Origin: Mustelus asterias
Taxonomy: Eukaryota
Direction of reading: 5' to 3'
Assembly: GCF_964213995.1 (NCBI RefSeq)
Contig: NW_027590121.1
Span: forward strand, 1,488,001 to 1,552,000
DNA length: 64,000 nt
The translations under genes were made by a program, and so were the position numbers. Below the pieces are notes generated by a model. That model made no database searches, was not told the DNA's origin, and saw nothing but the letters and a program-made list of their open reading frames with translations. This document shows, piece after piece, positions 6,324 through 54,700 of the stretch (positions are counted from its first letter, which is position 1; each line of letters begins with the position of its first letter).

Positions 6324-6451
6324 CTTCACCAGAGTGACCGCAGTGCTGTAGAAAATGCTCAGGAAGAACAGGACAATGAATGTGGAAGCCGTTGTCCAGA
6401 TGTTACTGTTATCATCCTCATTGTCTTCAATCCAGATGCGGTCGGTGGAGT
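6324..6451 (-). CDS. IGHM: IgM TM1 exon (DSTDRIWIEDNEDDNSNIWTTASTFIVLFFLSIFYSTAVTLVK)
   Basis: TAG acceptor at 6454-6452, GTGAG donor at 6323; conserved mu transmembrane motif WTTASTFIVLF.LS.FYS..VTL.K. Not in the ORF track. Confidence 0.95.
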
Positions 6452-7279: not shown

Positions 7280-7436
7280 TGTTTCCCTTTCTGTGGAGTT
7301 GCCGGCGTTGGACTGGGGTCGGCACAGTAAGTAGTCTCACAACACCCGGTTAAAGTCCAACAGGTTTATTTGGTTGCACGAGCTTTCGGAGCGTTGCCCC
7401 TTCATCAGGTAACGACTTACTGTTTCCCTTTCTGTG
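7280..7436. mobile_element. Short Penelope-derived insertion with a 16-bp direct repeat (TSD-like) and a hammerhead core
   Basis: TGTTTCCCTTTCTGTG at 7280-7295 and 7421-7436 flanks a sequence matching the end of the Penelope piece at 31614-31740. Confidence 0.7.
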
Positions 7437-8441
7437 TGCGTCTGTTTCTCTATGTGTCTGTGTGCACGCCTGTTAACATGTCAGTGTATGTATACACGTG
7501 TTGCCATTCTTTATAACGGTGCGTTTATGTATATTTGTGTTTCGATGTGTGGTAATGTGTGCTATGATGTTCTGTTCTATGAGCATGTTGATGTTTGCGT
7601 CCACATGTTTGTGTGTAAATGTTTTGCTGTCTGTTCTTCTATATGCAGTCTGGTGATTTGTTTCTATGTATTTCCATATATGTTTGTGAATGTGTATAAC
7701 ATTGTGTGTCTTTATATCTATATTCCTATCAGCGTGAACGTGTGCTAATATATATATGTATTTATTTGAGTCAAAGTATGTGCTTGTGTATTTATGTGGG
7801 TCTGCATGCGTGTGTATCTGTCTGTATTGTGTCTATGCATGTATGTGTTTGTGTTTGGGTCTGTACCTACTCACGTATGTGTATGTGTATGTACTTGTGT
7901 GTTTCATGTGTACATGTGTGGTTTGTACATATTTGATTATGTGTGTGTATGTTGTTGTTTTAGTGTCTGTTTGTACAAGAGCGCGTGTCTATGTGTTTGT
8001 ATGTGTGTGTGTGTGTATGTGTGCGTCTGTGTGTGTGTGTGTGCGAGTGAGAGAGAGAGAATGGGTGTGTCCCTATGTATATTTGTGTACGGATGTGTTT
8101 GTGTATGGGTGTATTTTTGTGTGGGTGTATTTGTGTAAGTGTGTATTTCTGTTTGTGCATGTTTTGCCCATGAGTGCATTTGTGTGTGCATTCTTGTTTC
8201 TCTGCATGTGTGTTCGTCTGTGCAAGTATTGAGTGTACCTATGGTGTGTGAAAGTGTATCTGTTGTGTATTTGTGTGTTTCTGTGCCTGTATTTGAATGT
8301 GCCTGTCCCTATTTCTGTATATGTATGTGTGTGGGGGTATGTGCATGCGTTTGTGTGTGTACATTTACATGTGTCTTTCTGCATTTGTGTGCATATGTGT
8401 GAGTATGTGTATTTGTGTGTGTAGTTGTGCATTTGTGTCGA

Positions 8442-8473
<32 letters not shown>

Positions 8474-8560
8474 TGAGTGTGAGTGTGTGTGTGCGCGCTT
8501 ATGTGTGTATTTATAATTGTGACAGTTCTGTGGAGTATTGTCAGTGTGTGTATTTTTTAG
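7437..8560. repeat. Degenerate (TG)n/(TGTA)n microsatellite tract in the CH4-TM1 intron
   Basis: Low-complexity TG-rich sequence. Confidence 0.9.
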
Positions 8561-9613
8561 CTGTTGCTCCAAGTTTCACCGCAATCATTAACTGAAAATG
8601 ATCCAAACAATACGAATAATGGAGCATATTTTCAATGTTTTGCTGTATGAATGTAGTTTATGTGAGTGGCACGGTGATATCAGGAGAACGAATCAAATCA
8701 TTCATTGATGCATCTCGGAAGCATCAGGGACAGAACAGTGAAAACTGGGGAGGATTCAATCATTTGTTTCAATTTGCATTATGGGAAATCACTGCCAGGA
8801 CATGATTAACAGGAACAAGAGTGCAGAAACATTTTTAAATTCTGTTACATAAGTATATATGCATCACATTGATTAAGAAAATGATACTTCAAACTCTGCA
8901 GCAAATAAACCGGAAGCTAATTTGTACTGTTGGCAACTGGGTTCTTCGAGTAGAGAGCTGGTCCCTTCCAAACACGTTACTTGCGAAGAGGGAGGGAGTG
9001 AGCTCATAACTTCCCTCTCTCTACCCGGTGAAGCAATGTGCCTGATGGTTCTAACCACTGACGAGGTGGAGGTGAGTGGATTAAATAATGCCATTCCTCC
9101 TCTTTTCATTGAGGAAGTGGTGGTACATGGGTTAGCTACTGCTCTCCCCTCTCTTTGTTGGGTGAGTAGGAATCTGGTATGTTAACAATTTCACTCTCCC
9201 TCTCTCTCTGATGGGGGATTGTTGCTCCATGTTTCTGTGTGACCCTCACTTCAGTTCCCAGTGGGTGTGGTGCAGCAGCTTAAATATGACATCAATGGTA
9301 AAGGCATGGACAACGAGAGAAGCAGGAACACCGAGATCTAAATGTTGTGTTTGTTTGTCAGAAATGTTGAATTTGTCAGATTTCTCCTCAGTGGGAGGAA
9401 AGTCGGTGAAGATATTTTGCAGAATACTGTAATGAATGTGCTCTACTCTGTCTCTAACCCAGGGTGTATCTGAGCTGGGTGCACTGGTTCAACAAGGCTT
9501 GGGCCCGAGACGTGAAAATACCTGACTCAAACCAAAGATACATAGTGGAAGTAAAATTGAAAACCAATCAATTAAGCAATTGGGTATTTCATTTATCGTT
9601 GGAGGAAAAAGAT

Positions 9614-9628
9614 TTTATTCTTTTTATT
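9614..9628 (-). terminator. Poly(A) signals for secreted IgM mRNA
   Basis: Two AATAAA on the minus strand (9628-9623 and 9619-9614), about 30-40 nt past the secretory stop. Confidence 0.75.
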
Positions 9629-9655
9629 GAAGTTTTTAATGTAATCGAGTGATTC

Positions 9656-10047
9656 TCATTGACATGAATTAACGGTGTCCATCAGTGCAAGGGAAATGTT
9701 CACAAAACTGGGTTTACCGCTGGATTTGTCAACTGTTCTGTTGATGATCTTCAAGGGGATGGCTTCATGTCCCACCACACAGGAGTAAGAAGCGCCGCTG
9801 GACCATTCCTCTGCTGCAATGGATAACAGGCTGTACATGAAGAAGGAGCTATTCCCGCTCTCCGCGACCACCTCGGTGTTCTTATAGTTCCCAGGATTCA
9901 CTGGCTTGTCGTTGACGGTCCACTTGACGAAGATCTCTCGAGGGGAGAAACGTCTCACTAAGCAGCTGAGGGAGACGAATCTCTGAGCGGAGACTTCTTC
10001 TGCCGAGGGCAGGAGGACAGAGACGAACGGTTCCCGCGGATTTGGAT
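9656..10047 (-). CDS. IGHM: IgM CH4 exon plus secretory tailpiece
   Basis: CAG acceptor at 10050-10048; continuous frame (D)[42 protein letters not shown]...[43 protein letters not shown]. Internal G/GTAAA donor at 9718/9717 for TM splicing; tail has the N-glycan site and penultimate Cys. Confidence 0.97.
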
Positions 10048-10540
10048 CTGCAGAAAATGTACAATAAATGTCAATAAACTGGAGAATTCTGGAGACAATG
10101 AAACTGCTGGCTAGATATCAGAAAAATGTGCTTCGTTTCGATTTTCAATGTTTCCATTTTTGACTTCCAGTTTGGAGCAGATGTGAACACAATTATTTTA
10201 TCAAATAACTCAGGGGGCTGGACTGGGAAGTTTCAGAAATTTTACAGCACAGAATCAGGCTATTCGGCCCAACTGATCGGCTTTTCTTTTGGTTTTCATG
10301 CTCCACATCAGGCTCCTCCCTCGTTATTCGATCTAAACCCAATAACATCGCCTTCAGTTCACTTTTCATTCATCAACACATCAAATTTCCCCGTAAAAAT
10401 ATCTACAACTCCCAGTTTTTAGTTAATGGAGTTTCCACTCAGGGGAGACCATTAATGCACTGAATACTGAATATTGACCAGTACACTTACACTGGAAATA
10501 GACACAGTGACGCATTTATTGCTTCAATCTCTCAGCTCAC

Positions 10541-10849
10541 CTGTTTCCTTGTGGATGGATTTTCTTAAAGGAGTCGGCAGATCCTGATGGCTCACCACGC
10601 AGTCAAACACAGCCGCACTCAGCCAGGCTTGTGTCGAGATGTTTAAGTTGCTGACCACGCTGTCAGGATCCGCTCCTGGCTTTTCGGCAATCTCTGATTT
10701 CAAATACTTCCTGTCTCGGATCCAGGACACATTGACTCCATAGGGAGCATGAGAAATGATGCAGGTTAAGGTCACGGTCGCCTCCAATAAGACCTGTTCT
10801 ATTGGCGGGGGCTGTATCGTCACTGTGGTATCAGGGCACTGGGGAGTAT
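10541..10849 (-). CDS. IGHM: IgM CH3 exon
   Basis: 309 nt, CAG acceptor and GTGAG donor, phase 1; (D)[50 protein letters not shown]. Confidence 0.96.
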
Positions 10850-11294
10850 CTGTGAATGAAAAATGAAAATCAACCCTAGTTCCCTCTTCAGAAGCAGGAC
10901 AGCAGTCTTCAGCCTGAAGGAGACGAAGTTGCCTTCGATATATCAACCACTAACTATCACCTTTCAGCCTCTATGGAGGATGGAAAACCAGCCTGCTCTG
11001 TGAAATTATTCTCTTTTTGTTCAAGTATTTTAGCAGCGGTATCATTCTCATGAATCAACATTGCAGTATTCCCCAACAAATATAGCATTCCTGAACTCAG
11101 GAACCAAGTACTGGCAGTTAGTTTATAAGTAGGGTGGATACACTTCCCAATATTTTACCCCTATGCTGTGACCTGTGAAACAGTCCGACACCGACTCTCT
11201 CTCCAAATCTTACCAGCTGTCTCAGGAAAAAGCTGACATCAAGACCAGCTCGCTTACTATGTTACTTTAAAATGGAAGGGAACACTATTTCAAG

Positions 11295-11600
11295 GGGAGG
11301 CAGTGGCATGGTGGTGTTGCCAATGGTCTTGTAACCCAGGGCACGACTCTGGGGACACAGATTCGAATCTCACCACTGCAGATGGTGAAATTTGAATTTA
11401 GTAAAAATCTATCATTAAAAGTCAAATGATCATCATGAAGCCGTTGTTGTAAAAACCCACCTGGTTCACGAATGCCGTTTAGAAAAGTAAATCTGTTGTC
11501 TTTATCTGGCCTGGCATGCATGTGACTCCAGATCCACAGTAACGTGGTTGACACTTAAGTGGCCTCCGGGATGGGCCACAAATGCACATCTCATGAAGGA
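11295..11600 (+). mobile_element. tRNA-headed SINE (DeuSINE/SacSINE1-like); related copy at about 37890-38190
   Basis: Shared core GATGGTGAAATTTGAATT...AAAAACCCA.CTGGTTCAC.AATG.C.TT.AG...GTGACTCCAGA.CCACAG; family name recalled from memory. Confidence 0.55.
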
Positions 11601-11766
11601 ATAACAAAAATTGATGTTGTGATGAAGTTCTGAATGGGGCACTGTCCCAATGCAGCAAACTACATGACAATAACTTAGAAGTTGTTCTATGCTTTGTATT
11701 AACTTTAATAGATCCCTAATTTCGATTAACAGCGGAATAATTTTTTTCTCGGTTTGAGTCTCTTAC

Positions 11767-12078
11767 CCAGAGATCCGCTGATGTTCTGACTCTGAGTGAA
11801 TCCTTGATGAGTGACCTGGCAGGTGTAGACCGCTTTGCTGAACCATTCCTGAGCGGAGACTGTCAACCGACTGCTGGCCGAGAAGTTCCCATTCACTTCA
11901 CAGGCGGGAGAGGTGACAATTCCTGAATTCATGGGTTGCCCATTCTTCAGCCACTCCACCGTCATTGACTTTGGCTGGAAATCAATGATTGAACAGACGA
12001 TGGTTGCAAATTTTCTGCTTGTGATTTCTTCACTGGAACTCACGGTGAGGATAACGGTTGGGGTGATAACGATTGGGC
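11767..12078 (-). CDS. IGHM: IgM CH2 exon
   Basis: 312 nt, AAG acceptor and GTAAG donor; (C)[46 protein letters not shown]...[20 protein letters not shown]. Confidence 0.96.
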
Positions 12079-12184
12079 CTTCAACAAACAAATGTTCAGA
12101 CGTTACTTGAAGATTTAATTGACATCAATTAAAATTAGTTCTTTTATTTAAGCACCATAGCTGCCGATTTGGGAATCATATCCA

Positions 12185-12910
12185 TGGTTTGGTTGAATTG
12201 GCAGGGAAATGGCGAATGGAATTCATCCGTCAAAAGTGCCATACAATGCATTTGGGGAGGGAAAACAAAGCAAGACAATAAACTGGAATGTTAAGAGGGA
12301 TTGAGGAAATGCAAGACCTTAGAGTGCACGTCCACAGGTCCTTGTAGATGGTAGGGCAGCTGGAAAAGTTGATCAAGAAAGCATATCGGATTAGTTCCTC
12401 TGTTATGTGAGATATTGAATGCAAAAACAGTGATACAATGATGGAGCTGTATAAAACCTCGTTTGGCCAAGTTTGGAGGTTGCTGTACAGTTCTGGTCAC
12501 CACAATGCAGGAATAACGAAGTGACTCTGGAGAGAGATGAGGTTTACAAGAATGTTGCCAGGGGCTAAAAATTGCAGCCATGAGGCGAGATTGGACAGGC
12601 AGGGTTTGTTCTCTTTAGGAAAAGAGGAGGCTGAGGCGTGACATAATTGTGGTTCACAAAACAAATAAAGGACGTAGGCAGAAATAATTCATTCCCCAAG
12701 TGGAGGGCTCAATTACCAGGGAGCATGGTCATTTAAAAGGTATCTAGGTCTGCATCTCAAGTGCTTTAAGCTGCAATGCTACGGAGTTGGGGCTGGAAAA
12801 TAGGCTTAACTTGTCTGGCTAGTTTATTTGTTCTCCCTTTTGGCCAGCACAGACATGGCGGGCTAAATGACCTCATTCTGCACAGTATCATTTCTGTTGT
12901 TCTTTGATTC
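12185..12910 (+). mobile_element. Degenerate CR1 LINE 3' fragment in the CH1-CH2 intron
   Basis: Similar to the RT C-terminal region of the CR1 copy at about 58790-59600. Confidence 0.7.
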
Positions 12911-13050
12911 TGAGCAACTTTTCAGTCAGTAGACACTTACCTGGATTTTGCATAATTCAATTTTTCAGAATGCTACAGATCAGTTATAACTAAGGCCTTA
13001 TAGAGTTCAATCACAGCGTTCCTGTCTTGCCCAAGTTCCACAACACTTAC

Positions 13051-13350
13051 ATTGCATTCCAATGCTCTTGACTGAGTCGCTGTGTCGAACCTCACAGTCG
13101 ATTTTGCTGCACTCTCCCACTGACTGGGTGATGGTTAACTGGCTGCTTAGGGTATAGGTTCCCTTCGCGTTTCTCACTGATGGATAAGTCTTAAATCCAG
13201 TGGCGATCAGCTGCCCATTTTTCTTCCAGGTCAGTTTGGAGACATCTGGAGAGTAGTCCATCGCCAAACAGCCGTAGGTGATGGAGCCAGCGGAGTTGTG
13301 TTGCTGACAGGAAGAGACGAGGCTGTAGAGAGTGGGCGGAGACGGTGTCG
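13051..13350 (-). CDS. IGHM: IgM CH1 exon
   Basis: 300 nt, CAG acceptor at 13353-13351, GTAAGT donor; (A)[45 protein letters not shown]...[20 protein letters not shown]...CEVRH, the shark mu CH1 signature. Confidence 0.96.
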
Positions 13351-14329
13351 CTGGGAAGGAATAGTCGATTGAACAAGTTAGACTATTACTTGCGTTTATT
13401 AATTAATCAAACATATTTATACAAGTATGTTTCTATATTAGGTATAGCTCTTGCGGCTAAAGGGATCAATGGATATGGGTAGTCGGCGGGGTCAGGACAT
13501 TGATGAGCCATGATCAAAGTGAATGGTAGAGCAGGGTCAAAGGGCCGAATGGCCTACTCCTGCTTCTATTTTCTATGTTTCTACATCACGATTTGTCTAG
13601 AATTATGAACTTAACTTAATATTTCCCGATTAAGACCTACATACACCTTTCAGCTTCTGTTACTCCTATCATTTGAGAATCGCCATCTTTGTAGAAACTC
13701 ACATCACTGTCTCGACCTCTATCAGGTTGGAAAGACAAAAACATTTTGATGTCATTGTAATGACATACCATTCATTGGATTAACAGAGAAGTGTAAAGAG
13801 TTTCTCCATTACTTCAGGCACTACCTATTTCTCAAACAACAGGACTTTGTGATGAAGAAGTTGTCTCTTCATTCATATCAGCCACTCGCCTGATGAAAGA
13901 GCTCCAAAAGCTCACGATTCCAAATAATCCTGTTGGCGTTCAACCTGGTGTTGTCAGACTCCTTACTGAGCCCACCCCAACCTAGCGTCGGCATATCCAC
14001 ATTGTAGTTTTGGCTATTGCCTGTGTTCAAACGAACTGATGCCCCTTCCTCTCTCCAACTCACAGCCTCTCACTCCACAAAATGAAGATTAGTGACTTTG
14101 CTTCAAAACTACCTTCGGAATGAATACTTACTGAATGACCAGGAAACTCTAAATGTGATTACAAATTCAAATAATTGCAACATTGACTAATTGAAGGGTC
14201 ATACATTAATAGCAAGAGTTGGCCATTCGGGCCCTGACGTCTCCTCCATTATTCACTGAGATTACAGATGATCTGGTTGTGGTGCTAGCTCTATTTTGCA
14301 CATCCTCACTCCGCCCGTCGATCACCCAC

Positions 14330-14930
14330 TCTCTGCCCATTTCCCCCGACTCTCTGCGCTTTTCCCTGGCTCTCTGCTATTCCCTGTGGCTCCTTTCCCC
14401 TTTCACCTGGCTCTCTACACTTCCCTCCAGCTCTGTCCCCTCTCCCCCGGCTCCCTGCCCTTTCCCTCAGCTCCCTACCCTTTCCCCCGGCTCTTTGCCC
14501 GATGTCCCTGCTCCCTATCCACTTTCCCCTTTCCCCTGGCTCTCTGCCCTTTCCCCCTGACTCTCTGCCTTTCCCCTTGACTCTCTGCCCTTTCCTCTGG
14601 GCTATCTTGTCCTTTTCCTCGGCTCTCTGTCCTTTCCCCGGCCTCCCTGCCCTTTATCCTGGCTCTCTCCTCTTTCCCTGATTCTCTGCCCTTTCACCTG
14701 GCTCCCTGCCCTTTCTATTAGCTCTCTGCCCTTTCTTCTGGCTCTCTGCGCTTTCTCCTGACTCTCTGCCCTTTCCCGGCTCTCAGCCCTGTTGCCCGGC
14801 TGTGGGCCCATTCCCCAGGCTCTCTGCCCTTCCCCCCCGGCTCTCTGCCCTTTAACACGCCTCCTGTTCTCCCCGGCTCTTTCCCATTGTCCTTGGCCCT
14901 GAGCCCCCAGGGATTCCCCCCAGCTCTCCA
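14330..14930 (-). repeat. About 20-nt degenerate tandem repeat, G-rich on the IgM sense strand (GGGAAAGGGCAGAGAGCCAG)
   Basis: Plus strand reads (CTGGCTCTCTGCCCTTTCCC)n. Confidence 0.9.
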
Positions 14931-15014
14931 CATTCGCAGGGCAGCTCCCACATTTGAACACCAAACTGCCGCTTAAGATCTTTCTTCTCTCTCGTTGCAG
15001 ACCTCCACACACAG

Positions 15015-16515
15015 GTTTAGCGAGTGTGAGTGAGAGAGTGTGAGTGCGTGCGGGTGAGTGATTGAAGGAGTGAGAGTGGATGAGTGATGGTGTGTGAGTG
15101 ACGGAAGGTGGGTAAGTGAGGGTGAGTGAGTGAAGTTCTTTCAGTGAGGATGAGTGATTGAGGGTGAGTGAGTGAGTGTGGGTGCGGGTGAGAGAGCGTG
15201 AGTAAATGATGGTGTGTGAGAGAGGGTGGGTGAGTGAAGGTGGCTTAATGTGTGAGTGAAGGTGGGTGAGTGAGTGTCGGTAAGAGAGAATGAATGAGGG
15301 TGAGTGAGTGAGGATGCGTGAAGGTTAGTGAAGGTGGGTGAGTGAGAGCGAGTGAATGAGGGTGAGGAGTGAATGTGACTTAGTAAGTGAGGGTGAGAGA
15401 GTGAGTGAGTCAGGGTGTGTTATTGAGGGTGGTGTGTGAGAGTGTGTGAGGGAGAATGAATGCGGATGGGTGGATGAGTGAAGGTGAGTGAGTAAAGGTG
15501 TTTGACTGAGGATGAGTGATTGAGGATCTGTGAGTTAGGGTGGGTGAACGTGAGTGATGGTGAATATGTGAGGGTGTGTGAGTGAATGTAGGTGCGTGAG
15601 TCTCAGTGAGTTTGAATGGGTCAGGTGGCGTACGTGAGAGAGAGAGGGTAATTGAGCTTGAGTGTGTGGGGGTGCGTCTGGGTGAGTGAGGGTGGGTAAG
15701 TGGGGAGAGTGAGTGAGGGTGAGTGAGAGTGATTGAGACTGGATGAGTGAGGGAGGGTAAGTGCGGTGAGTGAGTGAGAGTGATTGAGACTGGATGAGTG
15801 AAGGTGGGTAAGTGGGGTGAGTGAGGGTGAGTGAGAGTGAGTGAGACTGGATAAGTGAGGGTGGATAAGTGGACTGAGTGAGTGAGAGTGAGTGAGACTG
15901 GGTGAGTGAGGGTGGGTTAGTGGGATGAGTGAACGAAGGTGACTATGAGTGTTGGTGAGTGACTGAGGCTCTGAGTGAGTGACTGAGGGTTAGTGAGTGA
16001 GGTTGAGTGAGTGATAGCGTGTGAGTGTGGGTGACTGAGTGACAGTGAGTGAATGAGAGTGTGTGAGGGCGAGTGAGTGTGAGTGAGTGAGTGCTGGTGA
16101 GTGAATGAGGGTGTGAATGTGAGTGAATGAGGGTGAGTGAGTGAGGATGGGTGAGAGTGAGAGAGCGAATGTGTGTGAGTGATTTTGAGTGAGTGAGGGT
16201 GTGAGGGTGAGTGACTCAGGGTGAATGAGGATCAGTGAGTTTCTGAGGTTGAGTGCGTGAAATTGAGTGTGTGAAGTTGAGTGTGTGAGGTTGAGTGTGT
16301 GAAATTGAGTGTGTGAGGGTGGATGAGTGAGCAAGAGTGAGTGAGTTGGGATGAGTGAGTTGGGATGAGTGAGTTGGGATTTGTGAGTGGGGATGAATGA
16401 GTGAGAGTGTGTCAGCGAGGGAAGGTGGGTAAGTGAGGGTGAGTGAGTCAAGTTCTTTGAGTGAGGATGAGAGATTGAGGGTGAGTGAGGAAGTGTGGGT
16501 GAGGGCGAGAGAGTC
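15015..16515 (+). repeat. (GAGT/GAGGGT)n degenerate repeat tract
   Basis: About 1.5 kb of TGAG/GGGTGAGTGA iterations. Confidence 0.9.
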
Positions 16516-17114
16516 AGTGGGCCACCTCCACCTCTTCCTCTCCATCGATCTTTTCCCGATTCTCCACATTGATCAGCTTTCAGTAACACGGATGTGTAAA
16601 TCACCAGGCAGCTGCTTTAATGTCGGTGTCTTTCTTCAAGAAACACGTACCAGTGAACAAATAGTCAGACTGAGGGAGCTGTAGGGAAGCTTACAGCAAA
16701 ACTAGGATGGGTCGCACAGGAATCAACCAGTATTGGGAGCCAGGCGGCCATGGTCTCAGCCAATTCCCTTTTTATTTTTTGGGTTTTTGTGTCCGGTGTA
16801 ACACATGGAAATTCCTACTTCTGACCTCATGTTGGATGGAATGTCACTGTTGAAGCAGTAGAAGATTGTTGGTCCAAGAACAGTCCCCTGCCGACATCCT
16901 GCAGTGAAATCTGAACTTAGATGTTTGACCTCCAACCACCAATACCATGTTGCTTTGTGCTAAGTATGACTCCAAACAGAGAAGAATTTCCCGCCGATTC
17001 TTATTGACTTGAGTTTTACTCGGGCCCCTTGATCCCACCCTCATTCAAATGCTACCGGGGTGGGGGTGGGGGAGGGGGGAGTCGGGGGGGGCGTCGGGGG
17101 GGGGGGGGGGGTGC

Positions 17115-17428
17115 GTTGGCACGGTGGCACAGTGATTAGCGCTGCTGCCTCAGAGTTGGATTCCCGACTTGGGTCACTGTCTGTGTGGAGTTTGCAAGTT
17201 CCCCCCGTGTCTGTTTGGGTTTCCTTAGGGTGCTCCTGTTTCCTCCCACAGTCCAACGATGTATGGGTTCGGTGGATTGGCCGTGCTAAAATTGCCCCTT
17301 AGTGTCAGGGGGACTAGTTAGGGTAAATACATGTGGTTATGGGGATAGGGCTTTGCTGGGATTGCTGTTGGTGCAGACTCGATGGGCTGAATGGCTTCCT
17401 TCTGCACTGTAGCATCCTATGATTCTAC
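17115..17428 (+). mobile_element. tRNA-derived shark SINE, preceded by a poly-G tract (17056-17111)
   Basis: GGCACGGTGGCACAGTGATTAGCGCTGCTGCCTCA head and conserved body. Confidence 0.8.
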
Positions 17429-17469
17429 TCTATGGTGTCAAGGACAGACACTCTGACGTATGTGAGACC

Positions 17470-17530
17470 GAAAGTGTGTGTGTGTGAGAGAGAGAGAGAG
17501 AGCGATAGAGGGAGAGAGAGATAGAGGGAG

Positions 17531-17561
<31 letters not shown>

Positions 17562-18078
17562 ATGTGTGTGTGAGGATTCCTGTGTATGATAGAATGCGTT
17601 TGCACGTGTGTGAGACAGTGGGCTGTGCGTGCAAGAGGGGAGAGTGTGCGTGAGAGAAGGGGTGTGTGAGATAATGTGTGTGTGTGAGACAGAATGTGTG
17701 TTTGAAGAATTATTCTTTGTGTGTGAGAGTGTGTCTCTTCTTGAAAATGTATGTGTGTGGAGGGGCGGGGAGAGTGTGTGTGGGGAGTCTGTGTGAAAGA
17801 GTACTTCTGTGTGTGATGGTGTGTATGTTGATGTGAAAGGGAGTGTGTCTATTTGAGATACACGATGTCTGTGAAAGAGAGTGTGTGTGCCTGAGAGGGA
17901 GGTTATGTGTGAGGGAGAGTGTTGTGTTCATGTGAAAGACAGTGTGTGTGAGAGGGAGTGCCTATTGGAAAGCAAAATAATATGTTCATCAGTGTGTGAC
18001 ACTGTGCATGGGATGGCGTGTGAGTGAGAAAGATGTGTACAATGTGTGTGGATGACAGAAGCAATGTGGGGTGTTTGA

Positions 18079-18123
<45 letters not shown>

Positions 18124-19150
18124 GAGGGGCGGGGAGAGTGTGTGTGAGCGAGAAAAAGTGTGAAACTTAGACAGAGTGGATGCGTGAGTGTGTGTGAGTG
18201 AATTGACTGTTGAGAGAACATGTGTCTGTGATAGGTGGAGTGTTTAAAGAGAGATACATTGTATATACATGTGTGTCCGTGTGTAAGAGACGGAGAGACT
18301 GTGTGCGAGATTGTGTGCGTGTGAAAGGGAGGGTGTTTGTGAGAGACAGTGTTTGAGAGCAAGATTGTGCGTGTGTGAGACAATGTGTAAGGGAGTGAGC
18401 GGGTGAAAGAGAGAGAAATATGTACCTGTGTGAGAGAATGCGTGTGCAAGTGTCCGTATGAGTGAGAGCATGGGAATGTGTGTGAGACGAAGTGAGAGTG
18501 TACGGAAGAGGGAATGTGAGAGGGATAGTGCATGTGTGTGTGTGAGAGAGAGAATGTGTGCGCGAGACTGTGCTTATGTGAGAGACCGTGTCTGTGTGTA
18601 AGAGTGTGTGTTAGAGTGTGTGCATGTTCTATGTTTGTGAGAGTGTTTGTGAGAGAGCCAGTGTGTGAGAGCAAGAATGTAGAGGTGTGAGATAGTGTGC
18701 GCAAGAGAAATAGAAATATGTGCGTGTGTGTGTGTGAGAGAGAGAGATGCGTGTGCAAGAGGAATTGTGAGAGAGCGTGTGAAGAAATGTGAGACAGCTT
18801 GAGCGTGTGTGACAGAGAGTGGAAGAGAGAGAGTCCATGTGAGAGTGCGTGCGCGAGAGTGTGAGACTGTGCTTATGTGAGAGTGTGTGTCTGTGTGTAA
18901 GAGAGAATGGGTGGGTGTGTGGGGATGTGAGCGCTTTTGTGTATGGGGATGTGAGAGATTGATGGAGAGAGCGAGACGATGTATGTATTTGTATTGAGAG
19001 AGTGTATGTGTAACGTGAGAGAGAGAATGTGTATGGGTGTGTAAGAGAGACCGTATGAGAGAGAAAGTAAGTGTGAGTATGTATGTGTGTGTGTGTGCAT
19101 GTGTGAGAGAATATGAGAGTATTTATGTGTGTGAGAGTGTGTGATGTGTA
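17470..19150. repeat. (GT)n/(GA)n compound microsatellite tract
   Basis: Low-complexity GT/GA sequence. Confidence 0.9.
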
Positions 19151-22100
19151 TAAGTCTCTATTTGGCTGATTCAGTCTGGAAAACACACTCACTCCACACA
19201 TACTCACCCATTCACACAGTAAGTGGGAGTGACAAGTGAGCACAATACGGAGCGCGGGCCAAGGGTTGGAAAAACATTTAAATCTTTCGCAATCAGTCGC
19301 AATTGAATAATTCACCCTACTCAATGAGGGAAACCTGTAAAAACTCAAGAAATTTGACACAATCCAGGGCAAAGCCACCCACAAGATTATCCGCCCCCTC
19401 ATTCACCCTATTCTCTCTCTCCATCACTAACAAGCAGTGACAGCAGTGTGTGTTATATACAAGATGCACTGCAGCAACTCACCAAGGCTCCATAGTAAAC
19501 ACTGTCCAAACCCGTTGCCTTTATATCCTAACAGGATAAGGGCAGCAGCCACATATGAAGACTACCACCTGCAAGCTCCCCTCCAAGACACACACCATCC
19601 TGACTTGAAACAATACCTCAGTTCCTTCTGGGTCAAAATCCTGGAACTTCCACCTAACAGCACGGCGGATGCCTGCAGCATATGGATTGCAGTTATTCAA
19701 GGATGCTTCATATCAACACTTTCTCAAGGAACAATTATTGATGATTAAAACTTCTGGCCGAGCAAATGACTCTAAAATGGGTTTAGAAGATTAAAAATAA
19801 GATGCAAATGAATTTGACCCTTCAACTGTCATACCAAACAGGTCATGGACTGCTTTACTACGGAGCACAATCTCACTTTGCATTTGCTCATCGAACATTC
19901 CCAAGGCCGGTACATCACTGGTTAAAAATCATCCAAACCTCCCTCTACAATCTGACGTTTCTGCTCTCTCTGATGGTCACAATATGCTTTAGGGATCTCA
20001 TTTCTGAGACGCCGAGACAAACATCAAGTCAAACTGTCACATTTCTCACAGATACAAGTTTATTGAAGAAATAAATCAAATTTCACTCCCTGAAATACAG
20101 CAGAAGGAACCAGAAGTTTTACAACCAGTCAGGCAGATTCCTGGTCCCAACACAGTGACCACGCGCGCAGAAACAGAACAGACACAAACGGTGCAACAAT
20201 CGATTTCCCAGCAGGTAGGTATGATCAATCTGTCAATTTAATTCAAACTGTTTGATTCTAATTGATCAATGATCAATTTACAACAGAAAATCAATAACCT
20301 CTTTTAAATAAAACTGAAATTCATTTCAAAACTCCTGTCGATTTTTAATTATGTCTCTCTGCCTGTCTCACTTCTCGAAAACTATGTAAAAATGTAATTT
20401 CGCTGAAAATTAGGAATCAAAAATAACAGATTCAGGACAGTTCAATGTCCCCGACAGAGATACAGTGACACAGTAAGGATTAAATAAACCAAGAAACATT
20501 TACATTGAAAATCATTACCTGATTCGATCTAATTTCTTAATTAAATGTAATCAACAAAATATTCGAGGTAAAACACCTTATCGAGCTAAGCATAGCTGAT
20601 AAAAGAAAGGTTTTGTTTCTGAATTCATTTTCGATACAATTAAACATTCTCTGAAACGGATGATACTTTGCACGCCCGTGCATTATTCAAGGTATTTTGT
20701 TTTGAATTAATTAGCACCAATATTATATTTTGTTTTGTTAATTGCCGGTTACTTTTCCTGTTAGCTGATTTGTACTCCCTAATAAAATCAGTTTTCAATC
20801 ATTCAAAACTTTCCCTGCCTCGAACATTGTGAAGTAATTAGGTTCCAATTAAATATTAAACAATAAACTTCAAATTACTGAATGGAAAGATTCAGACATC
20901 TGTAATTCATTTGCTTCAATCGAATAACATTGTCATGTTTTTTCATTTCCACTTTTACTCCAAATGCCTTATTATAACCTGCAAACGTGTTAAGAATGCA
21001 TGTTTCTGACTTTGTATATACTGTAACGGCCTGGCAGTTTGAGGTCAATGAAGCTGCTTCCTAGATTTAATAATTTGGACCATCCATATAATTTAATTAC
21101 TGAACATATTGTTTAAATTAAGAAGTTCTGAATTAAACAATGAAAAACACAATGAGGACAATTGATTCAAATCCTCTGCAACACTGAAACATGATGCACA
21201 AAATAAGTCGAGACTTTTTCTTCAGTATAATATTTAATACTAATTAAACATAATGCTCAAATAGAATCAATTCTTCTATTCTGTCATTTATTCATCCAAT
21301 AATTCTATTCTATGTTCAGCAGTAATGGGAGACAGGATGTTATTATTAAATGCAGAGCAAATATTACTAATATAAAAATATTATAATATTATAAAAAATT
21401 AATTATTTGAATTTCAAATATTAAATTGTAAATCTCTAGCCAGTTTCTGTTGACACCTTACGACAATTCAAACACCATTATATGAACAATTGTTTAGTGT
21501 TAGCGAATTCCACCTGTCAGAAAACTGTGTTCACTCTGTCACATTTATTCAAACTGTGGGATTCTAATTGATCAATTTTCAAACTACAACAACAAAAATC
21601 AATAACTTCTTTTAAATTAAACTGATATTCATTTCAAAATTCCCTTCGACTTTTAACTATTTCTCCCTGTCTATCTCAAATCTCGAAAACTAGGCAAAAA
21701 ATATTTTTTTTTCTGAAAATGTGCACATCAGATATAACCGATCCAGGGTAGTGTAATGTCCCTAACAGAGGTACAGTGACGCAGTAAGAATTGTAATTCA
21801 TGATTTACTTTAATCTGCAAGCATCAGTTAACATGAATAAAATGCTCAAATATATATTTATTTTATTTTTTCCGATACCAGTTTGTTTTATCCTGACAAG
21901 GATGTTTAAACGCAGTTTGTTTTTTTCATTTAGCTAGAAAAAGTGTAACCGCTCAGGATCACCGAGTTGAAACAATACAGAAACAATTGAGAAACACCAA
22001 ACCATTTCACAAATTTTGAGATGAGATTAGTGATTAATTACCTCTGCATCCAGCTACAAATTACTTGGAAGGAATGCTGCGCCTGCACAGAAACAATGTA

Positions 22101-24011
22101 ATAATCGGGCACAAAAATTTCCAAATAGCGTTTTATTGCCAATTATTCTCCAAAACTCATATTTAAGTGAATGCGAACTTCATCGGGGATATAACAATTA
22201 ATGCAAAGTATCTTGTTGAACTGAGCGCTGCTGTGGAAACAGCATGTTATCATTGAAATTGTTTCTGGAATTATCACAAAATATTTCCAGCCGAGAAACC
22301 TTTTTGGTCATGTTAATTGTATGCAAAGCACAGCAGAACTATTAAAGCCGATTAATGCGAAATGATATTAATAGAAAATAATCTTTTGTGAATATGTAGT
22401 TATGTTACCGATTAATAACAGTTTGATTTATATTAATTTTACTATCAAACTTGTTAATGAGAAGTTTGTTTTTGCAGCAACTACTTAGTGTCCGATTGAG
22501 CGTTGTAAGACATGATTTATTTTAATTTCTAAGAGTTAGTTAAAATTTATAAAAATGCTGTAATACCTTTATTTTATTTCTTTCACAACCTGCTTATTTT
22601 CTCCCTACAAGGATTTTCAAACTCATAGATTATTTGCATTTAACCAGAAAACGTGTAACCGCTCAGTGCCACCGAGTTTAAACAATGCAGAAACACCAAA
22701 ACATTTCACACATTTTAAACATTCTTAGTGACCCAACAACAGAACCTCCTCAACAGAAACACACCAAAACACATCAATGAGGGAATGAATCCGTTTCACG
22801 GGGACGCAACTCAATTATCCATTCAACAAAATCAAAAATATGATTGCAAGGAAATCTCAATATTCAATCCGGCAAACCAGCTCGTCACCAAGTATATGAA
22901 TGATTGAACTAAACAGAAATTTGGAATAAGAGCAATAGCATTGCGAGGAGGTGGAATATGTCCAACAAATTAATATTGAAATTTTACCACATTCTATTCA
23001 TATTGGGTCATATTTCAAACAGATTTCAAACATATTAAAATATTAGGTGGGTAAAAGCTGCAGCCGTCAGATGCCACCGAGGTTAAACATGGCATGTATC
23101 CCAAATTATGAATGCAGTGGCAAACTATGTTTTGGACGAGTGGCATAAACCGTGGTTTGGTTTAACCTGCAATTATCAGCTACGATTTAAAAAAATACAA
23201 ATACAATAAAGCCTGCCTGATTTCTGTCTGCAGGCACGCGTCAAGTAGTTTAAAACCCGCAGACTGTTTGTATTCAATCACAAAGTGTGTAACAGCTCAG
23301 TGTCACCGAGTGTAAACAATGCAGAATCTCCGAACCATTTCACAAATTTTACTGATTCAAAGTCACCCAGACAGACAACCTCCTCACCAGAAACACGCAG
23401 CACTGAGGGACTGAACCCCGGCTCATGCAGAAGCAGCTCAATTCTACAAACAGTTGCAACAGAAACAAATTTCACATTGGCAGAAAATCTCAATTTAAAA
23501 TCCAGCCAATCTGACCATCACCAAAGCAACTAATAATTAAAATAAGCACAACAATGAGATAACAAAACCAGATTGTGATTAAGCGGAACATGTTCGCAAC
23601 ATTAAAGTAGAAACTTTAACACATTTTGTTAATATTGGGTTAGATTTCAAACACTTGTGCAGTGGATGGTGCAACTCGCAGCCACGAGATGTCACCGAGA
23701 TTAAACATTGAAGAAACGCCGAACTGTTTAACAAAAGGAAGGCATTTAAAGTAACCCAGCCACACAATGTCCTCAGCAGATAAACAACAAATCACAACAA
23801 GAGACTGAATCACTCAGTGTCACCTTTTGTCAATTAACAGTAGAATTCTATAACCCCCATTTTAAGCAGGATCACATGAAACATTGTAAAGATTTTCAGC
23901 ACAGAATCCACCAAACCACATTACATTGAACGAATGAATTAATAAAATCGAGAAAAAGTATAAAACAAAAACTCAAATAAAACACTGACTAAATAAAGGC
24001 ATGGTTCTTAC

Positions 24012-24059
24012 CTGCAGTCACCGTCACCATGGTCCCTTGTCCCCAGTAGTCCATGGCGT
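24012..24059 (-). CDS. JH segment (AMDYWGQGTMVTVTA)
   Basis: WGQG motif and GTAAG donor at 24011. Upstream RSS: heptamer 24060-24066, 23-nt spacer, nonamer 24090-24098 (ACAATAACC on plus). Confidence 0.97.
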
Positions 24060-24425
24060 CACAGTGTCACATTCTCTAGGCTGGGTCATACAATAACCAT
24101 CTCTGCACAAAATAGACAGAAATCCATCAGTATTTTAAAAATTCACAAGCCAGAGGGAAAGCAAATCACTGCATTTTCATGAAATTATTATTGTACTGGT
24201 GGATACCGTTCGCTCTACATAAATAACCTTAATGTTTTATATTTCATAGAGGATCACATGATCAAGTTATTGAAAACACCAACTGATAATCAAATAGTTA
24301 TCATAAATTTTCCATATTATTTCTCGCTATTTGTGTAGTGCTGGGACATAAATAATACAGCACTGTAAATAATGCTGGATTGGAAAACAGAGCACTGCCC
24401 CAGTCTCGGTCAATTAGTGCTGAGG

Positions 24426-24493
24426 GGTTTTTGTATTGACAGTAACTGCTGTGCCATCCAGTTATCACAGTGAGACACAGCATGACAAATACT
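24426..24493 (-). other. DH2 segment (ATAACTGGATGG, 24465-24454) with 12/12 RSSs
   Basis: 5' RSS: nonamer 24485-24493, 12-nt spacer, heptamer 24466-24472. 3' RSS: CACAGCA 24453-24447, 12-nt spacer, ACAAAAACC 24434-24426. Confidence 0.95.
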
Positions 24494-24793
24494 GTGCCCG
24501 ACTGCTAACTGTTTAATTTCACTGCTGTCTCAAAAATCTGATTCTGCCTCATCCACGAGCGAATGAGTGAGATATTTCAGCTTGTCCTGGTCATTATATT
24601 TATAAAGGGTATCGGAATGCTTTTAAACTCTCTGTGTAGATTTAGCATATCGTTCAACACAGATTTTACGGGAAGATTTTTATACCTTTTCACAAACTAA
24701 TATTGCTTCTGCGCATTATTTCATTGAAGCCTCTTTTACTTTGAAAATCCTGCTGTGGTGCTGATCACCAATTTGAGCGATCTCTTTCCATGA

Positions 24794-24873
24794 GGTTTTT
24801 GTATGAGGATGTCGCTGTGCTCAGCACTGTGACCCACTGCTGTATCACAGTGACAGACACTCGCACAAAAACT
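24794..24873 (-). other. DH1 segment (ATACAGCAGTGGGT, 24845-24832) with 12/22 RSSs
   Basis: 5' RSS: nonamer 24865-24873, 12-nt spacer, heptamer 24846-24852. 3' RSS: CACAGTG 24831-24825, 22-nt spacer, ACAAAAACC 24802-24794. This is the classic shark D1 layout. Confidence 0.95.
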
Positions 24874-25245
24874 GCACTTACTTTCTGTTCAGTACTGCCG
24901 CTCAATATTCACTTCAAATAGACCATTATTCGTGATGTAATTTACACTTAATGCAACAGTTTACAAAACACAATCTAAAAACATCTCCTCCAAGTATCAG
25001 AAATATTAAAACGAGCATTATATCCAGGTGTGTAATTGCTGAAACTGTTAACAGTAAATATAAACAGAGTGAAAAGCTCAGCCCATTATGTCTGTGCGTT
25101 TTCTTGGTTTAATGTTTAATTTTCACTAAGTTGGGTTTGTCAGAAGCAGTTTGTGTTTTGCTTCTGATCACTGTCGTTAGCATTATATTTAAAACAGATA
25201 CTGACCTTCAGGTTATGATGAAAGTTGCTGAATTCCCTCTCGAGC

Positions 25246-25284
25246 TGTTCTTGTTCGGGTCCATCCCTGGTTCCTCTCGCTGTG
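25246..25284 (-). other. 23-RSS of VH
   Basis: CACAGCG (25284-25278), 23-nt spacer, ACAAGAACA (25254-25246). Confidence 0.9.
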
Positions 25285-25589
25285 GTGTCTTGCACAGTAA
25301 TAGATGGCGGTGTCTTCGGTCTTCAGCCTTGTCATCTCCAAAGAGAAGATGTTGGTTGAAGTGTCTTTGGACGCAGTAAATCGATCCTTAATTGCTGGGG
25401 CGTAGTTGTTGCTGGATGAACTATAGTAGCTAACCAGCCACTCCAACCCCTGTCCTGGAACCTGTCGGATCCAGTTCATGACATTGCTGCTAAGATCGAA
25501 GCCGCTGGTTTTACAGGTCAGTGTCAGGGAGCCTCCGGGACGCCCGGTCTCTGCCTCTGGCTGAGTCAACACGACCTGCGTCTGGACAC
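25285..25589 (-). CDS. Immunoglobulin VH exon (shark IgM type)
   Basis: CAG acceptor; (G)[101 protein letters not shown]; no stops. Confidence 0.97.
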
Positions 25590-25721
25590 CTGTAAAAATA
25601 GATCAAAAAACCCGAGGATTAATCCTGGTGTAATGATTTTTGACTCGGGAATATTACAGAGATGGACTAAAACTGAGACAGTATCTTTGGGAGACTTAGA
25701 CAATGAAAAATAACTACTCAC

Positions 25722-25767
25722 CGGATAAGAAAGTCAGCAACAAACTGAGAGAAATCGCCGACCTCAT
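25722..25767 (-). CDS. VH leader exon (MRSAISLSLLLTFLS)
   Basis: 46-nt exon, ATG at 25767, GTGAGT donor at 25721. Confidence 0.95.
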
Positions 25768-34635: not shown

Positions 34636-35370
34636 GGATTCCAATTCATTGCATTGCATTCCTTACAACTCTGGCTGAGAGAACACATTGGGCAACATTG
34701 AATTGAGGTTGTGGAGTGAAGACGATGAACTATCGTGAAGAGACAAGACTCAGAACCAGAAGGAGAAAGCCAGAGACAGAGATGAAACACAGGGAATTTC
34801 CACGAACACATTTTTCGTGTTATTATATTTCGGGATCCTTTCTTAATTCTGAACATAGATATTGTCATGATTTTTTCCCTCATATAATTGCTGAATAAAT
34901 AATGTATAAAAACAACCATTTCTGGAATCCGTTGATCGATTTGCATGTTTGTCTCTATTTCTGTGCTGTGTTGGTGGGGAAATATTTGTTGTGTTTTTGT
35001 CAGTCAACAATCTAATCTGGGATTTCTATTTCTGTGTTTATTTACATAAGCTCCTCACTGTTTACAATGAAATGTTCATGGCAGCAAAAACAGATAAACC
35101 GTCACTTATTCATTAGTTTCAACTCAAAATAGCGATTATTTTAAGAATATTAACAGTTGGTTCAAAATGAATAGAAACATTTTTAACATACATTACACAA
35201 GATGCTCTTTAATTAAATGAATAAATACATTCTATTTAAGAATTTGTTCTGCAAGTTCTGATGTCACAGTAAATAAAATATCTGTGAACAGATTGGTATT
35301 CCACTGAATGTTAATTTGATTGATGATCTAAATTGCTTCAACTAGACAAGTTAAAACAAAGAGAACTGGT

Positions 35371-35434
35371 GTGTGAAATATTCCTGTCACAATTAGTGAG
35401 CAGACTCCCACGAGGGAAGAATAAAAAATCCAGT
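35371..35434 (-). pseudogene. Relic of a TCR V leader exon/intron
   Basis: About 54/64 nt identical to 2053-2116 by manual alignment; encodes LDFLFFP versus LDFLLFP in the intact leader; splice donor destroyed. Confidence 0.75.
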
Positions 35435-36696
35435 GTGGTTATCACTAAGTGATACAAGTAGCATTGCTGCCTCACAGTGACAGGGAAGGGGGTTCGATTC
35501 CAACCTTGGCTGACTGTGTGTGGTTTTTCACATTCTACCATGTCCATGTGAGTTTCCTCCGGGTGCTCCGGTTTCCTTCCACAGTCCAAGGATGTACGGA
35601 TTAGGTGGATTGGTACGATAAATTGCTCCTTTGAGTCCAAGGGTGAGTAACGTAGAATCACAGAATCCCGACAGTGCAGAAGGAGACCATTCGGTCCATC
35701 AAGTCTGCACCAGCTGTCCAGCAGGGCATCATTCCCAGGCCCAAGGTGGATTGGAGATTCTAAATTGCCCCTTCGCGGCCAACGATGTGTAGGTTAGAGT
35801 CATTAGCCTTTGAATATGTGAGGTTGTCGGGGTAGGGTGAAGGCTTGGGCCTGGATAGGATGCGCTGCTGGAAAGCAGCTACAGGCTTGATGGGCCTAAT
35901 GGCCTCCTACTGCGCTACACTGGATTCTATGATTCTATGCTGCTATGATCAGGCAGAGGAATGAATATATTCGCATTAATCTCTCAGCACTTCCAACGTA
36001 TTGCAACTTTCATTTTGGTAGAGCTTACATTTATAGAACGCTTTACCCGACTTCATGTAGTCCCAAAGTTTTTAAAACTCACTAATGTACCTTTGCTGAA
36101 TTTAGTCACCGCTATCATGTTGCTAATACAACAGGTAATGTACGTACAACAAACTCCCACAAACCGAGATGTGATAAATTGCCAGTAAATTTGTGATTTT
36201 GTTTGAAGAATCAGTATTAAGGTAGGATATTGAGGAGAACAGCCTTGCTCTTTAGAATTATATCAATGAGATTTTGCATCCTGTCATTGAATTTAAATGT
36301 GAATCTTGTTCTCTCTCTGCTGATGCACACTGATCTGCTGAGTAGCATTTGTTTTGCTTTAGTTTTAGATTTCCAGAATCGGCAGCACTTTACACTGTTG
36401 TTATTGATCCTCTGGATGTGAGCATCACTGACAAAGCCAATATTTAGTTGTCCCTGCTGAGAAGGCGGGTGTGAACCACCTGGTTGAAACCTGCCCTCTG
36501 GATGATTTTATTATTTGTTTCTCCATAGCAGCTTTGAGACAACTGACTGGCATGCCTGGCAATTTCAGTCGTGGTTAGAAGTCATTTTCATCATAGTAGA
36601 ATTGGAGTCCATGTAGGACAGATAGGGTGAAGATACAAATCTTCGGTTTCCAGTTATTTCCAAAGAGAAGATGTCGTTTAAAGTATAAAATCAAAT

Positions 36697-51700: not shown

Positions 51701-54700
51701 GACATTTGATCCTGACTCTGTCTATAATTCGCGAGACCAGGTCACTGTTATTACTGCACTATAGTATTCCTCTGTCTGAACTATGGCTACATGAACATTA
51801 CTCAACGGTTCTGTGAGGTAGAGATATAATATAATGCATAAATATGCTGGGCTATAAACATCTGTATTCAGCAGGATCTTGAAACGGAAAATATTGGATC
51901 GACAGTGTATGCTGCGCAGGGTTTGATATCTATTTTCAATGCATCAGCAGAATGAGCTTTCAAATATCACTTCTTCTTTTCCAGTTCCCAAGACTTGTCT
52001 CCATCCGTCAGAGTTGTATCTGTAGGAGGATGCAGAGAATCATGTTCCCATAGCCACTTTTCACATTATTGCGCATTGTCTAGTGCAGTAATAACTGAGT
52101 CCGTGCCCAATATAAAATGAACATGGACATGGTCAAGTGCATCCAGTTTAGTACAGAGACAGGTCTACATTAATAAAAGCAGAGTCATTGTCGATCTCAA
52201 TATGAACAGAGACATGGTGATGTGTAATATAAACAGAGAGAGCATCTAGTTTATTATAAACAGAAAGTACGTCCAGTGTAATGTGAACAGAGACAAAATC
52301 TTCTTTCATATAAACCGAAATAGGGATTAGTTAATTTAACATCAGCAGAGACAGGTCACAGATGAGTGCAATATCGAGACAGGGCCGAGTGTCCCATCAA
52401 ACATTCCAGGTGTAGCATGTGTTTAGGCACCGAATGTAAAGCTCCCTCCACAGTGCAACATTAAACACTCCCAAGCAGGTGTAGCACGGGATCGATAAAA
52501 AGTGAAACTCCATCCACACTATCTCAATCAAGCATTTCCAGCAAATGAAGACTGTTTAGAAACAGTAAAAACCTCTCTACACTGTCCATTGAAACAATTG
52601 GACGCTGGGACAGAAAGGGTTAGGTACAGGGAATGATCAAGATACATATTGGAGAAAAGCTCTCTCTATAGATTGAATTAAATCCATTTAGTTAGAGGCC
52701 TGAAAATAGACCTGAGAGAATACATTTGCTGGAGTTTGACTTGATGTTGTTGAGTAAAGACAATGACCCATCGTGGAGAGACAAAACAAGACACAGAATC
52801 AGAGAGGAGAAAGACAAAGAGAGATAAAGCACATTAAATCGCCGCGTCCTTTTATTTTGTGATTAGAGGGAATCTTTCCTAATTTTGAACATTGATAATC
52901 ATAGCTTGGTTTGTGCATATAACTGATGAAAACATATGCCCAAAAAACAATCACAACTGGAATCCAATGATTGATTTGCATGTTTGTCTCTATTTCTGTG
53001 CTGTGTTGATGGGGAAATATTTGTTGCGTTTTTGTCAATCAATAAATCTAATCTGGGATTTCTATTTCTGTTTTTATTTCCATAAACACCTCACTGGTTA
53101 CAATGAGATGTTCATGGCAGCAAAACCAGATAAACCGTCATTTATTCATTAGTTTCAATTCAAAATAGCGGTTTATTTTAAGTATATTGACAGCAGGTTC
53201 AAAATCAATAGAAACTTCGTGAATACCCATTAGACCAGACGCTATTTAATTCAAATAAAAAAATACCCTCTAATCAAGAATTTGTTCTGAAAGTTCTGAT
53301 GTCAGAATAAATAAAACATGTTTGAAAAGACTGGTATTCCACTGAATGTCAATTTGATTGATGATTTAATCTATTAAAACTAGACACGTTAAAACATCAG
53401 GCAGAGGAGTGACGATAATCGCATTAATCTCAGAGCTTTTAACATATCAATTCTTGCATTTTATAATATTAACATTTGGAAAGGCCTTGCATTTTCATAA
53501 CGCTTTACCTGACGTTAGGTCGTCCCAAACCATTTACAACTCACTGATATATTTTCGCTGAAGTTATTCACTGCTGTAATGTTGGACATACAACAAGGAT
53601 TTGGTGCACAACAAGCTCCCACTAAGCGAGATGTGATAAATGAACAGTAATTTTGTGATTTTAGTTGAAGAATGAGTGGCCAGGATACTGGGCAGAACAG
53701 TCCTGTTGTATCGAATTTTATCAATGAGATTTTACATTCTGTCATCGGCCTGAAATGAGAATCTGTTTCACCCACTGCTAATGCCCACTGACCTGCCTTT
53801 TTTGTTGTATTACTTTTAGATTTCCGGAATTCGCAGTAGTTTGCACTGTTCTATTCATTCTCTGGATATGGGCATCACTGACAAAGTCAGCATTAATTGC
53901 CCATACTGAGAAGGCGGTTGTGAACTACCTTTTTGTAATAATTGCCCTCTGGTCGGTTTTATTTATGTTTGACTTTCTGCAGCAACTTTGAAACACCTGA
54001 ATGGCTGTTTTGTCAATTTCAGAGGCACGTAAGGGTCAGCTTCATCACTGTGGAACTGGAGTCACATGTAGGACAAACAGGCTAAACATAGGTTTTTTTA
54101 TTGATTCGTGGGCCTTGCACATTACTGGCTGGCCAGCATTTGTTGCCCATCTCTAGTTGCCCTTGGAGGGCAGTTGAGAGTCAACCACATTGCTGTGACT
54201 CTGGAGTCACATGTAGGTCAAACAAGGTAAGAACGGCAGATTCCGTTCCCTAAAGGGACATTAGGAAACAAGATGGGTTTTTACAACTATCAACAATGGT
54301 CTCACTGTCATCAATAGATTCTTAATTCCAGCTATTTTTTATTGATTTCAAGTTCCACCATCTGCTCTGGCGGGATTTGAACTCAGGTCCTCAGAACATT
54401 GACTGAACATTAGTGACATAGAAATTAGGAGCCGGAGGAGGCCATTCGAGCCTGATCCACCAGTCTTCATGATCATTGATTAATTTCCTATTTCAAGGCC
54501 ACATTATTGGATTCTGCTCACACCCCCGATACCATTAAAATCTAATCACAAATCAATTTATTTCTTGAATCTATTCAGTGGCATGACATCCGAAGCCTTC
54601 AGTGCTCGAGCACTCCGTATGTTCACTAGTCTCTGAAGTGAAGAAATATTTCCTCATTTCTGTCCTAACTTGGCTACCCTATGTCTTGAGACTGCATCCC

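Follow-up and report, generated by a model that had tools for sequence, protein, structure and literature searches.

Linkage of Ig and TCR genes in sharks has already been published: as presented in part of PMC12227049, the IgH clusters of four elasmobranchs are linked to TCRalpha/delta, with TCR-type V exons located between them. The same portion of that paper mentions TAILV, NARTCR and IgHV-TCRdelta trans-rearrangements in sharks. In a different context, insertions of L2/CR1-type LINEs frequently have short duplications and, where the 5' end is joined, additional templated nucleotides, these extras being described, in the relevant portions of PMC4245944 and PMC4760211, as "several" nucleotides copied from the DNA flanking the junction; moreover, the SINE HE1 with its partner LINE HER1 has been reported from sharks and rays (PMC3747384, in part).

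Here we consider a window of 64,000 nt from the 3.68-Gb genome of Mustelus asterias (G000:C89:1488001–1552000), in which a fragment of a TCR V leader (further on, the relic), fused to a SINE, lies within the DNA of an IgM cluster. As in the elasmobranch complex (PMC12227049, in part), TCRalpha/delta-type V exons are found between IgH clusters, in our case on scaffold C71 and on unplaced contigs, but the complex as described there consists of whole V exons taken from gene models, whereas here a leader fragment is fixed in the IgM duplication unit. An exchange of Ig and TCR sequence, attributed to the closeness of the loci in the same part of PMC12227049, is shared with TAILV, NARTCR and the IgHV-TCRdelta chains; however, in those cases functional Ig-type V are found in TCR chains, while here a germline, non-coding scrap of TCR is found in Ig clusters. 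With the 5' extras of the L2/CR1-clade LINEs, as far as these are covered in the cited portions (PMC4760211, PMC4245944), the insert shares a filler at the truncated 5' end, a short or absent target duplication and microhomology at the joint; unlike them, the filler is 65–95 nt long, originates in a recognizable gene family instead of the DNA directly beside it, and is joined to a SINE. The literature covered, consisting of papers available without subscription, yielded no description of shark IgM clusters that contain a piece of a TCR leader.

Organization of the Window

The IgM cluster is encoded on the minus strand and comprises a VH pseudogene, an intact VH, two D, JH, Cmu1–4 and two TM exons (Table 1), which is the minicluster layout of cartilaginous fish IgM. 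Beyond the TM exons, also on the minus strand, a TCR V-type gene with a split leader, an open exon and an RSS23 is located. Among the 60 best PDB matches of this gene (1608–2149) most are TCR alpha chains, the single top match being an antibody diabody (E 1e-15), and the gene is predicted to encode a TCRalpha/delta-type V domain rather than an Ig one. A representative search with its protein returned for the most part multi-Ig proteins without names, along with an unnamed relative at 76% and an "Ig-like" protein from the elephant shark, and yielded no shark TCR name; a search for longer homologues of the protein gave none, and TCR Calpha was not located by the Pfam model or by the nurse shark primer motif.

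Both JH (24060) and VH (25284) carry 23-spacer signals, the VH signal deviating from the consensus at three positions, and the D spacers are 12/22 in D1 and 12/12 in D2. Use of the downstream TCR V by the cluster of the window in cis was considered and rejected on the geometry of the RSSs: the signals of the TCR V and of D1 face outwards, so a V–D joint would end on the excised circle.

Table 1. Coordinates of the features in the window (position 1 is the first nucleotide of the window)
Feature	Position	Strand	Remarks
TCR Valpha/delta-type gene, intact	1608..2149	-	leader 2149-2092 (58 nt), V exon 1919-1647, 23-spacer RSS 1646-1608
Putative junction of the IgM 3' flank with the TCR V-bearing segment	5693..5694	.	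2-bp microhomology; one assembly copy
D1, D2, JH, Cmu1-4, TM1, TM2 (remaining IgM cluster)	6179..24885	-	
Intact VH	25245..25767, ATG 25767	-	split leader, 23-spacer RSS; 9.6 kb downstream of the relic
Whole insertion, TCR V relic and SINE, 590 bp	35358..35947	.	site empty in the paralogous duplicate
Likely further TCR intron, ~13 nt, to the left junction	35358..35370	-	putative
Core TCR Valpha/delta leader relic	35371..35434	-	leader exon 25 nt, with a 1-nt deletion; intron 39 nt; degenerate splice donor at 35409-35404
Ambiguous joint, 17 nt	35435..35451	.	fits earlier TCR leader codons or, partly, the SINE 5' end
SINE, 5' end short by about 22 nt	35452..35947	+	short tandem tail at the right junction
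Inverted SINE 3' fragment inside the SINE of the insert	35653-35745		
VH pseudogene of duplicate B	about 37150-36890	-	upstream of the relic
Empty paralogous site, duplicate B	53379..53408, junction 53395/53396	+	

The Relic and Its Insert

The resemblance to a TCR V leader that the initial annotation had noticed by eye is reproduced by self-BLAST (2053–2116 vs 35371–35433, 84.4% over 64 columns, same strand, E 1.4e-11), with 54 of 64 positions identical between 35371–35434 and 2053–2116, and the minus-strand translations read as it gave them, LDFLFFP in the relic and LDFLLFP in the leader. The local alignment score of the pair is 92, compared to a mean of 21 and a maximum of 43 in 2000 shuffles. 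The leader exon (2149–2092) is 58 nt long, and the matching span takes in its final 25 nt and continues for 39 nt into the intron; in all, the TCR leader exon/intron piece amounts to 65–95 bp and is non-coding.

Its location between the VH pseudogene and the intact VH places the relic within IgM-cluster DNA. About 590 bp had been noted as absent from the paralogous duplicate, and the insert indeed measures 590 bp (35358–35947), the duplicate aligning on both sides of its empty site (34675–35358 vs 52712–53396, 80%; 35948–36635 vs 53396–54090, 72%). The larger part of the insert is a SINE which may be V-SINE HE1 (partner LINE HER1), an abundant shark SINE of about 320 bp with a short tandem 3' tail. 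V-SINE HE1 is composed of a tRNA-derived head, a V domain and a HER1-derived tail. Measured against four other copies in the window, the SINE is about 22 nt short at its 5' end, and the TCR piece occupies exactly that place. At its right end the insert closes with the SINE tail, and in nine of nine aligned copies the tail repeat continues into the target for 2 nt; no target duplication longer than 1 nt is seen. The left target flank resembles a continuing TCR intron (possible imperfect microhomology, judged by eye). An Rfam scan of the insert gave no match.

The relic lacks what a functional TCR V requires, having no ATG in the leader frame, a 1-nt deletion at the exon end and no V exon; its splice donor is degenerate in the copy of the window and in some others, and intact in most. 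A role as a working leader was rejected as well, since the sole ATG nearby is on the antisense strand of the SINE, is not in frame with the leader and is missing from several of the old copies. Among six deep copies the mean p-distance comes to 0.122 in the relic and 0.163 in the SINE, the two flanks having 0.133 and 0.156, so that over just 90 columns conservation of the relic appears slightly higher than that of the flanks. Decay at about the flank rate is what these distances suggest, and the relic is likely to be without function.

Copies of the Relic in the Genome

The 19-mer common to the relic and the leader has 84 genome matches at no more than one mismatch, compared to one match of the reversed control. 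By their coordinates, 32 of these are TCR V leaders, 48 are relic copies, and four are strays on large chromosomes; in the two strays whose sequence was examined, no further leader homology was seen. Together, leaders and IgM-linked relic copies account for 80 of the 84 matches, where the initial annotation had expected TCR V leaders. The relic matches all 11 TCR V loci of the same family among L056–L066, and also L074, L075 and L036–L039, and none of the seven loci of other V families (L067–L073) aligns with it.

The relic is not private to the window, other IgM clusters having been checked for it: at least 61 loci carry it, distributed over 36 contigs, and 11 of these loci belong to the 20.4-Mb scaffold C71 (the total is a union of several genome searches, and some contigs may be alleles, so it is not a gene count). 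A correctly oriented Cmu4, with the relic upstream of it, is found 22–42 kb away at 53 of the 61 loci; several of the remaining eight are near contig ends or beside rearranged clusters. Hence at least 53 of the 105 tabulated Cmu4 copies bear the relic, the tabulation being based on 112 matches with seven weak or fragmentary rows omitted and 150 of 476 candidates scored. The relic and the SINE are together at the same site in all 38 loci (of 61) inspected by sequence, neither part occurring alone in any of them. The empty B site (see below) is located about 17–22 kb upstream of most relics, and this regularity indicates that A plus B constitutes the amplified unit.

Two relic-bearing clusters, C154:644001–654000 (L113) and C91:2403001–2413000 (L110), have VH, D and JH compressed or partly deleted, with JH about 400 bp from VH, and are possibly germline-joined or deleted clusters. 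Moreover, 32 of the 112 Cmu4 matches are 100% identical in protein with flanks differing by 5–15%, which suggests homogenization of, or strong constraint on, the IgM constant exons.

Order of Events

The region at 26.5–36.6 kb (A) is an old tandem duplicate of that at 38.6–54.1 kb (B), and B runs uninterrupted through the insertion site. In a tree built from the left flanks (400 nt), the filled sites, 39 rows from 38 loci with the window counted twice, form one clade with support 0.955, and the ten empty duplicate-B rows form another with support 0.973. The outgroup, a single cluster of about 77% identity at C71:4.97 Mb, has one unduplicated copy equidistant from A and B, and its site is empty. 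Five divergent clusters were sampled, of which two were informative, the outgroup and one with A, B and the relic, and three had no usable site. With the filled sites in one clade and both the sister and the outgroup sites empty, the order is local duplication, then a single insertion into A, then amplification. The relic is, on sequence comparison, a single old insertion into IgM upstream DNA, multiplied along with the clusters.

Of the two scenarios offered by the initial annotation, capture of a TCR fragment after the local duplication is therefore upheld by the single clade of filled sites and by the empty sites in the sister duplicate and the unduplicated outgroup. The other scenario, an IgM cluster that landed within a TCR V array, was not sustained: on either side the relic is bordered by IgM upstream sequence, which rules out such a landing.

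The Downstream TCR V Gene and the Junction at 5693/5694

The initial annotation had also argued from TCR sequence flanking the IgM cluster on both sides. This argument did not survive, since only two of the 53 relic clusters with a located Cmu4 have a V of this family within 30 kb downstream, and only three of 53 have any listed V family within 35 kb downstream of Cmu4. We infer that the two sides reflect two unrelated events, the downstream TCR V having arrived by a separate and much younger rearrangement.

In the window an intact TCR V follows a complete IgM gene at a distance of 4 kb, and about 480 bp separate the last IgM TM exon from the putative junction between the two. Positions 1–5694 match TCR V segments on C128 (99.7%) and on C1002 and C325 (96–98%), all of which diverge from the window exactly at 5694, and the IgM 3' flanks of C132 and C143 part from it at 5693. 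As no identical twin of either side was found among the matches seen, and no long repeat spans the joint, a real young rearrangement is favored over a misjoin by these alignments. Public contigs from four runs (at most three samples, two studies) contain both parental continuations at 5693/5694; no bridge across it occurs among the public contig pieces listed, beyond which there are 243 more, and contigs cannot show absence. C128 holds both partner segments 48 kb apart, and a joint of the tandem-duplication type is thus compatible with the data. The claim that the relic argues against an assembly artefact stands for the relic itself, with its 61 loci on 36 contigs, and fails for the attachment of the TCR V, as the relic says nothing about this junction.

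TCR-Type V Genes Among IgM Clusters

TCR-type V genes with RSS23 are present among the IgM clusters of C71, near 7.34, 11.12, 12.35 and 19.35–19.42 Mb, and TCRalpha/delta-type V exons are found between IgH clusters also on several unplaced contigs. Out of 68 Cmu4 on contigs with a listed TCR-type V, 11 have one within 50 kb. Long-standing proximity of Ig and TCR genes, which had been deduced from the relic, is likely; it is supported by the TCR-type V genes between the IgM clusters of C71 and by the described part of PMC12227049, the relic adding indirect support only.

Several arrangements of such genes were observed. At C71:7340738, C270:100845 and C128:359999 (L140, L141) a divergent Cmu4 is followed, about 11 kb further downstream, by a TCR-type V of another family with RSS23, on the same strand at all three loci, which makes this a second repeated pairing of IgM with a TCR V. 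The regions of C71 at 11.12, 12.35 and 19.35–19.42 Mb (L036, L037, L144–L146, L153, L155) are small multi-family arrays of TCR-type V, some of them broken, between IgM clusters, and the 11.12 and 12.35 Mb blocks look like mutual duplicates. Finally, at C128:243501–313500 (L104–L107, L078–L080) a TCR V is located 37 kb upstream of a Cmu1–4/TM gene on the same strand; its exon is identical to that of the V of the window, the start codon being changed, and no VH, D or JH was detected between it and the Cmu1–4/TM gene.

Origin of the Insertion

We think it rather probable that the TCR piece was captured once, as a templated filler during retrotransposition of the SINE into IgM upstream DNA, and was then copied with the clusters. 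The SINE 3' tail would have been primed at the target by the partner LINE; during joining of the 5' end, synthesis would have switched to a TCR V leader as the template, probably in a TCR V gene interspersed among the IgM clusters; the switched strand would have re-joined the target via imperfect microhomology; and the captured piece would have been carried along as the IgM clusters multiplied. It is the anatomy of the insert, in which the TCR piece, in antisense orientation, adjoins a SINE truncated at its 5' end and the SINE tail forms the opposite end, that suggests capture during 5'-end joining. As expected of LINE-driven insertion, the insert stops at the 3' tail of the element, shares microhomology with the target there and shows a short target duplication at most; it also has extra sequence at the truncated 5' end, the coupling of relic and SINE suggesting that both originate from the same event. 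By local alignment, a pseudogene type on C71 and C111 is the top-scoring candidate donor for six of ten relic copies, with small margins. Compared to the published 5' extras, a filler this long (65–95 nt), whose source gene does not adjoin it at present, is unusual.

5' transduction would account equally well for one event, an antisense TCR piece and a right end formed by the SINE tail; in that scenario a SINE inserted head-to-head in a TCR V leader, and an antisense read-through transcript from the leader intron was retroposed whole into the IgM upstream region. We consider this unlikely: no donor is seen, the TCR V loci fetched or aligned having uninterrupted leaders, and a genome search with the relic/SINE joint motif revealed no TCR V with a SINE at its leader among the inspected matches, 57 of the 59 matches being at known relic copies or 22–42 kb from Cmu4, and the other two being strays on large chromosomes. 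The event is old, though, and the donor could have been lost. Less probable still is a pair of independent events, templated repair that filled a double-strand break with a TCR fragment and, later but before the expansion of the clusters, insertion of a SINE alongside it. Short templated insertions are a general outcome of break repair, and the joint between the TCR and SINE parts is ambiguous over about 17 nt; but the SINE would have had to land exactly at the edge of the fragment and lose its 5' end there, and the absence of either part alone in the 38 inspected copies argues against a two-step origin.

TCR-type V genes do occur between IgM clusters, with 11 of 68 Cmu4 close to one, and one may ask whether the cluster landed in, or grew from, a TCR V array, the relic being a remnant of a whole neighboring TCR V gene. 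This is highly improbable and largely refuted by the empty ancestral site, the IgM upstream flanks being contiguous in the sister duplicate and the outgroup; besides, no inspected relic copy extends towards a V exon, and the V family of the relic is found within 30 kb downstream in only 2 of 53 clusters. It may also be asked whether the 64-mer belongs to a dispersed repeat or resembles TCR V leaders only by chance. It does adjoin a high-copy SINE, and 4 of the 84 motif matches are on large chromosomes; but the other 80 are TCR V leaders or IgM-linked relics, with one match of the reversed control, the similarity crosses the exon–intron boundary, and its score exceeds the shuffled maximum more than twofold (92 vs 43). 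We give this explanation practically no credence, and the relic is not the dispersed high-copy repeat of which the initial annotation had warned.

Implications

Present on at least 53 of 105 tabulated Cmu4 copies, the relic is a marker of single origin, and as such it orders the expansion of IgM: local duplication of VH, capture of the TCR and SINE sequence, mass amplification. It also sets a minimum relative age for the neighborhood of Ig and TCR genes, as the flanks of its copies differ by up to 17–20%. The relic implies no new function; it is a germline fossil of DNA that moved from a TCR V gene to an Ig cluster, opposite to the described cases of Ig sequence entering TCR. One could go further and suppose that germline traffic from TCR to Ig is recurrent and ongoing, given an old leader on about half of the IgM clusters, a young TCR V junction and a TCR V upstream of Cmu on C128, a generalization that we regard as unlikely. 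If true, recurrent traffic would supply substrates for reverse chimeras, with a TCR V on an IgM constant region, which would be a mirror image of the known IgHV-TCRdelta chains.
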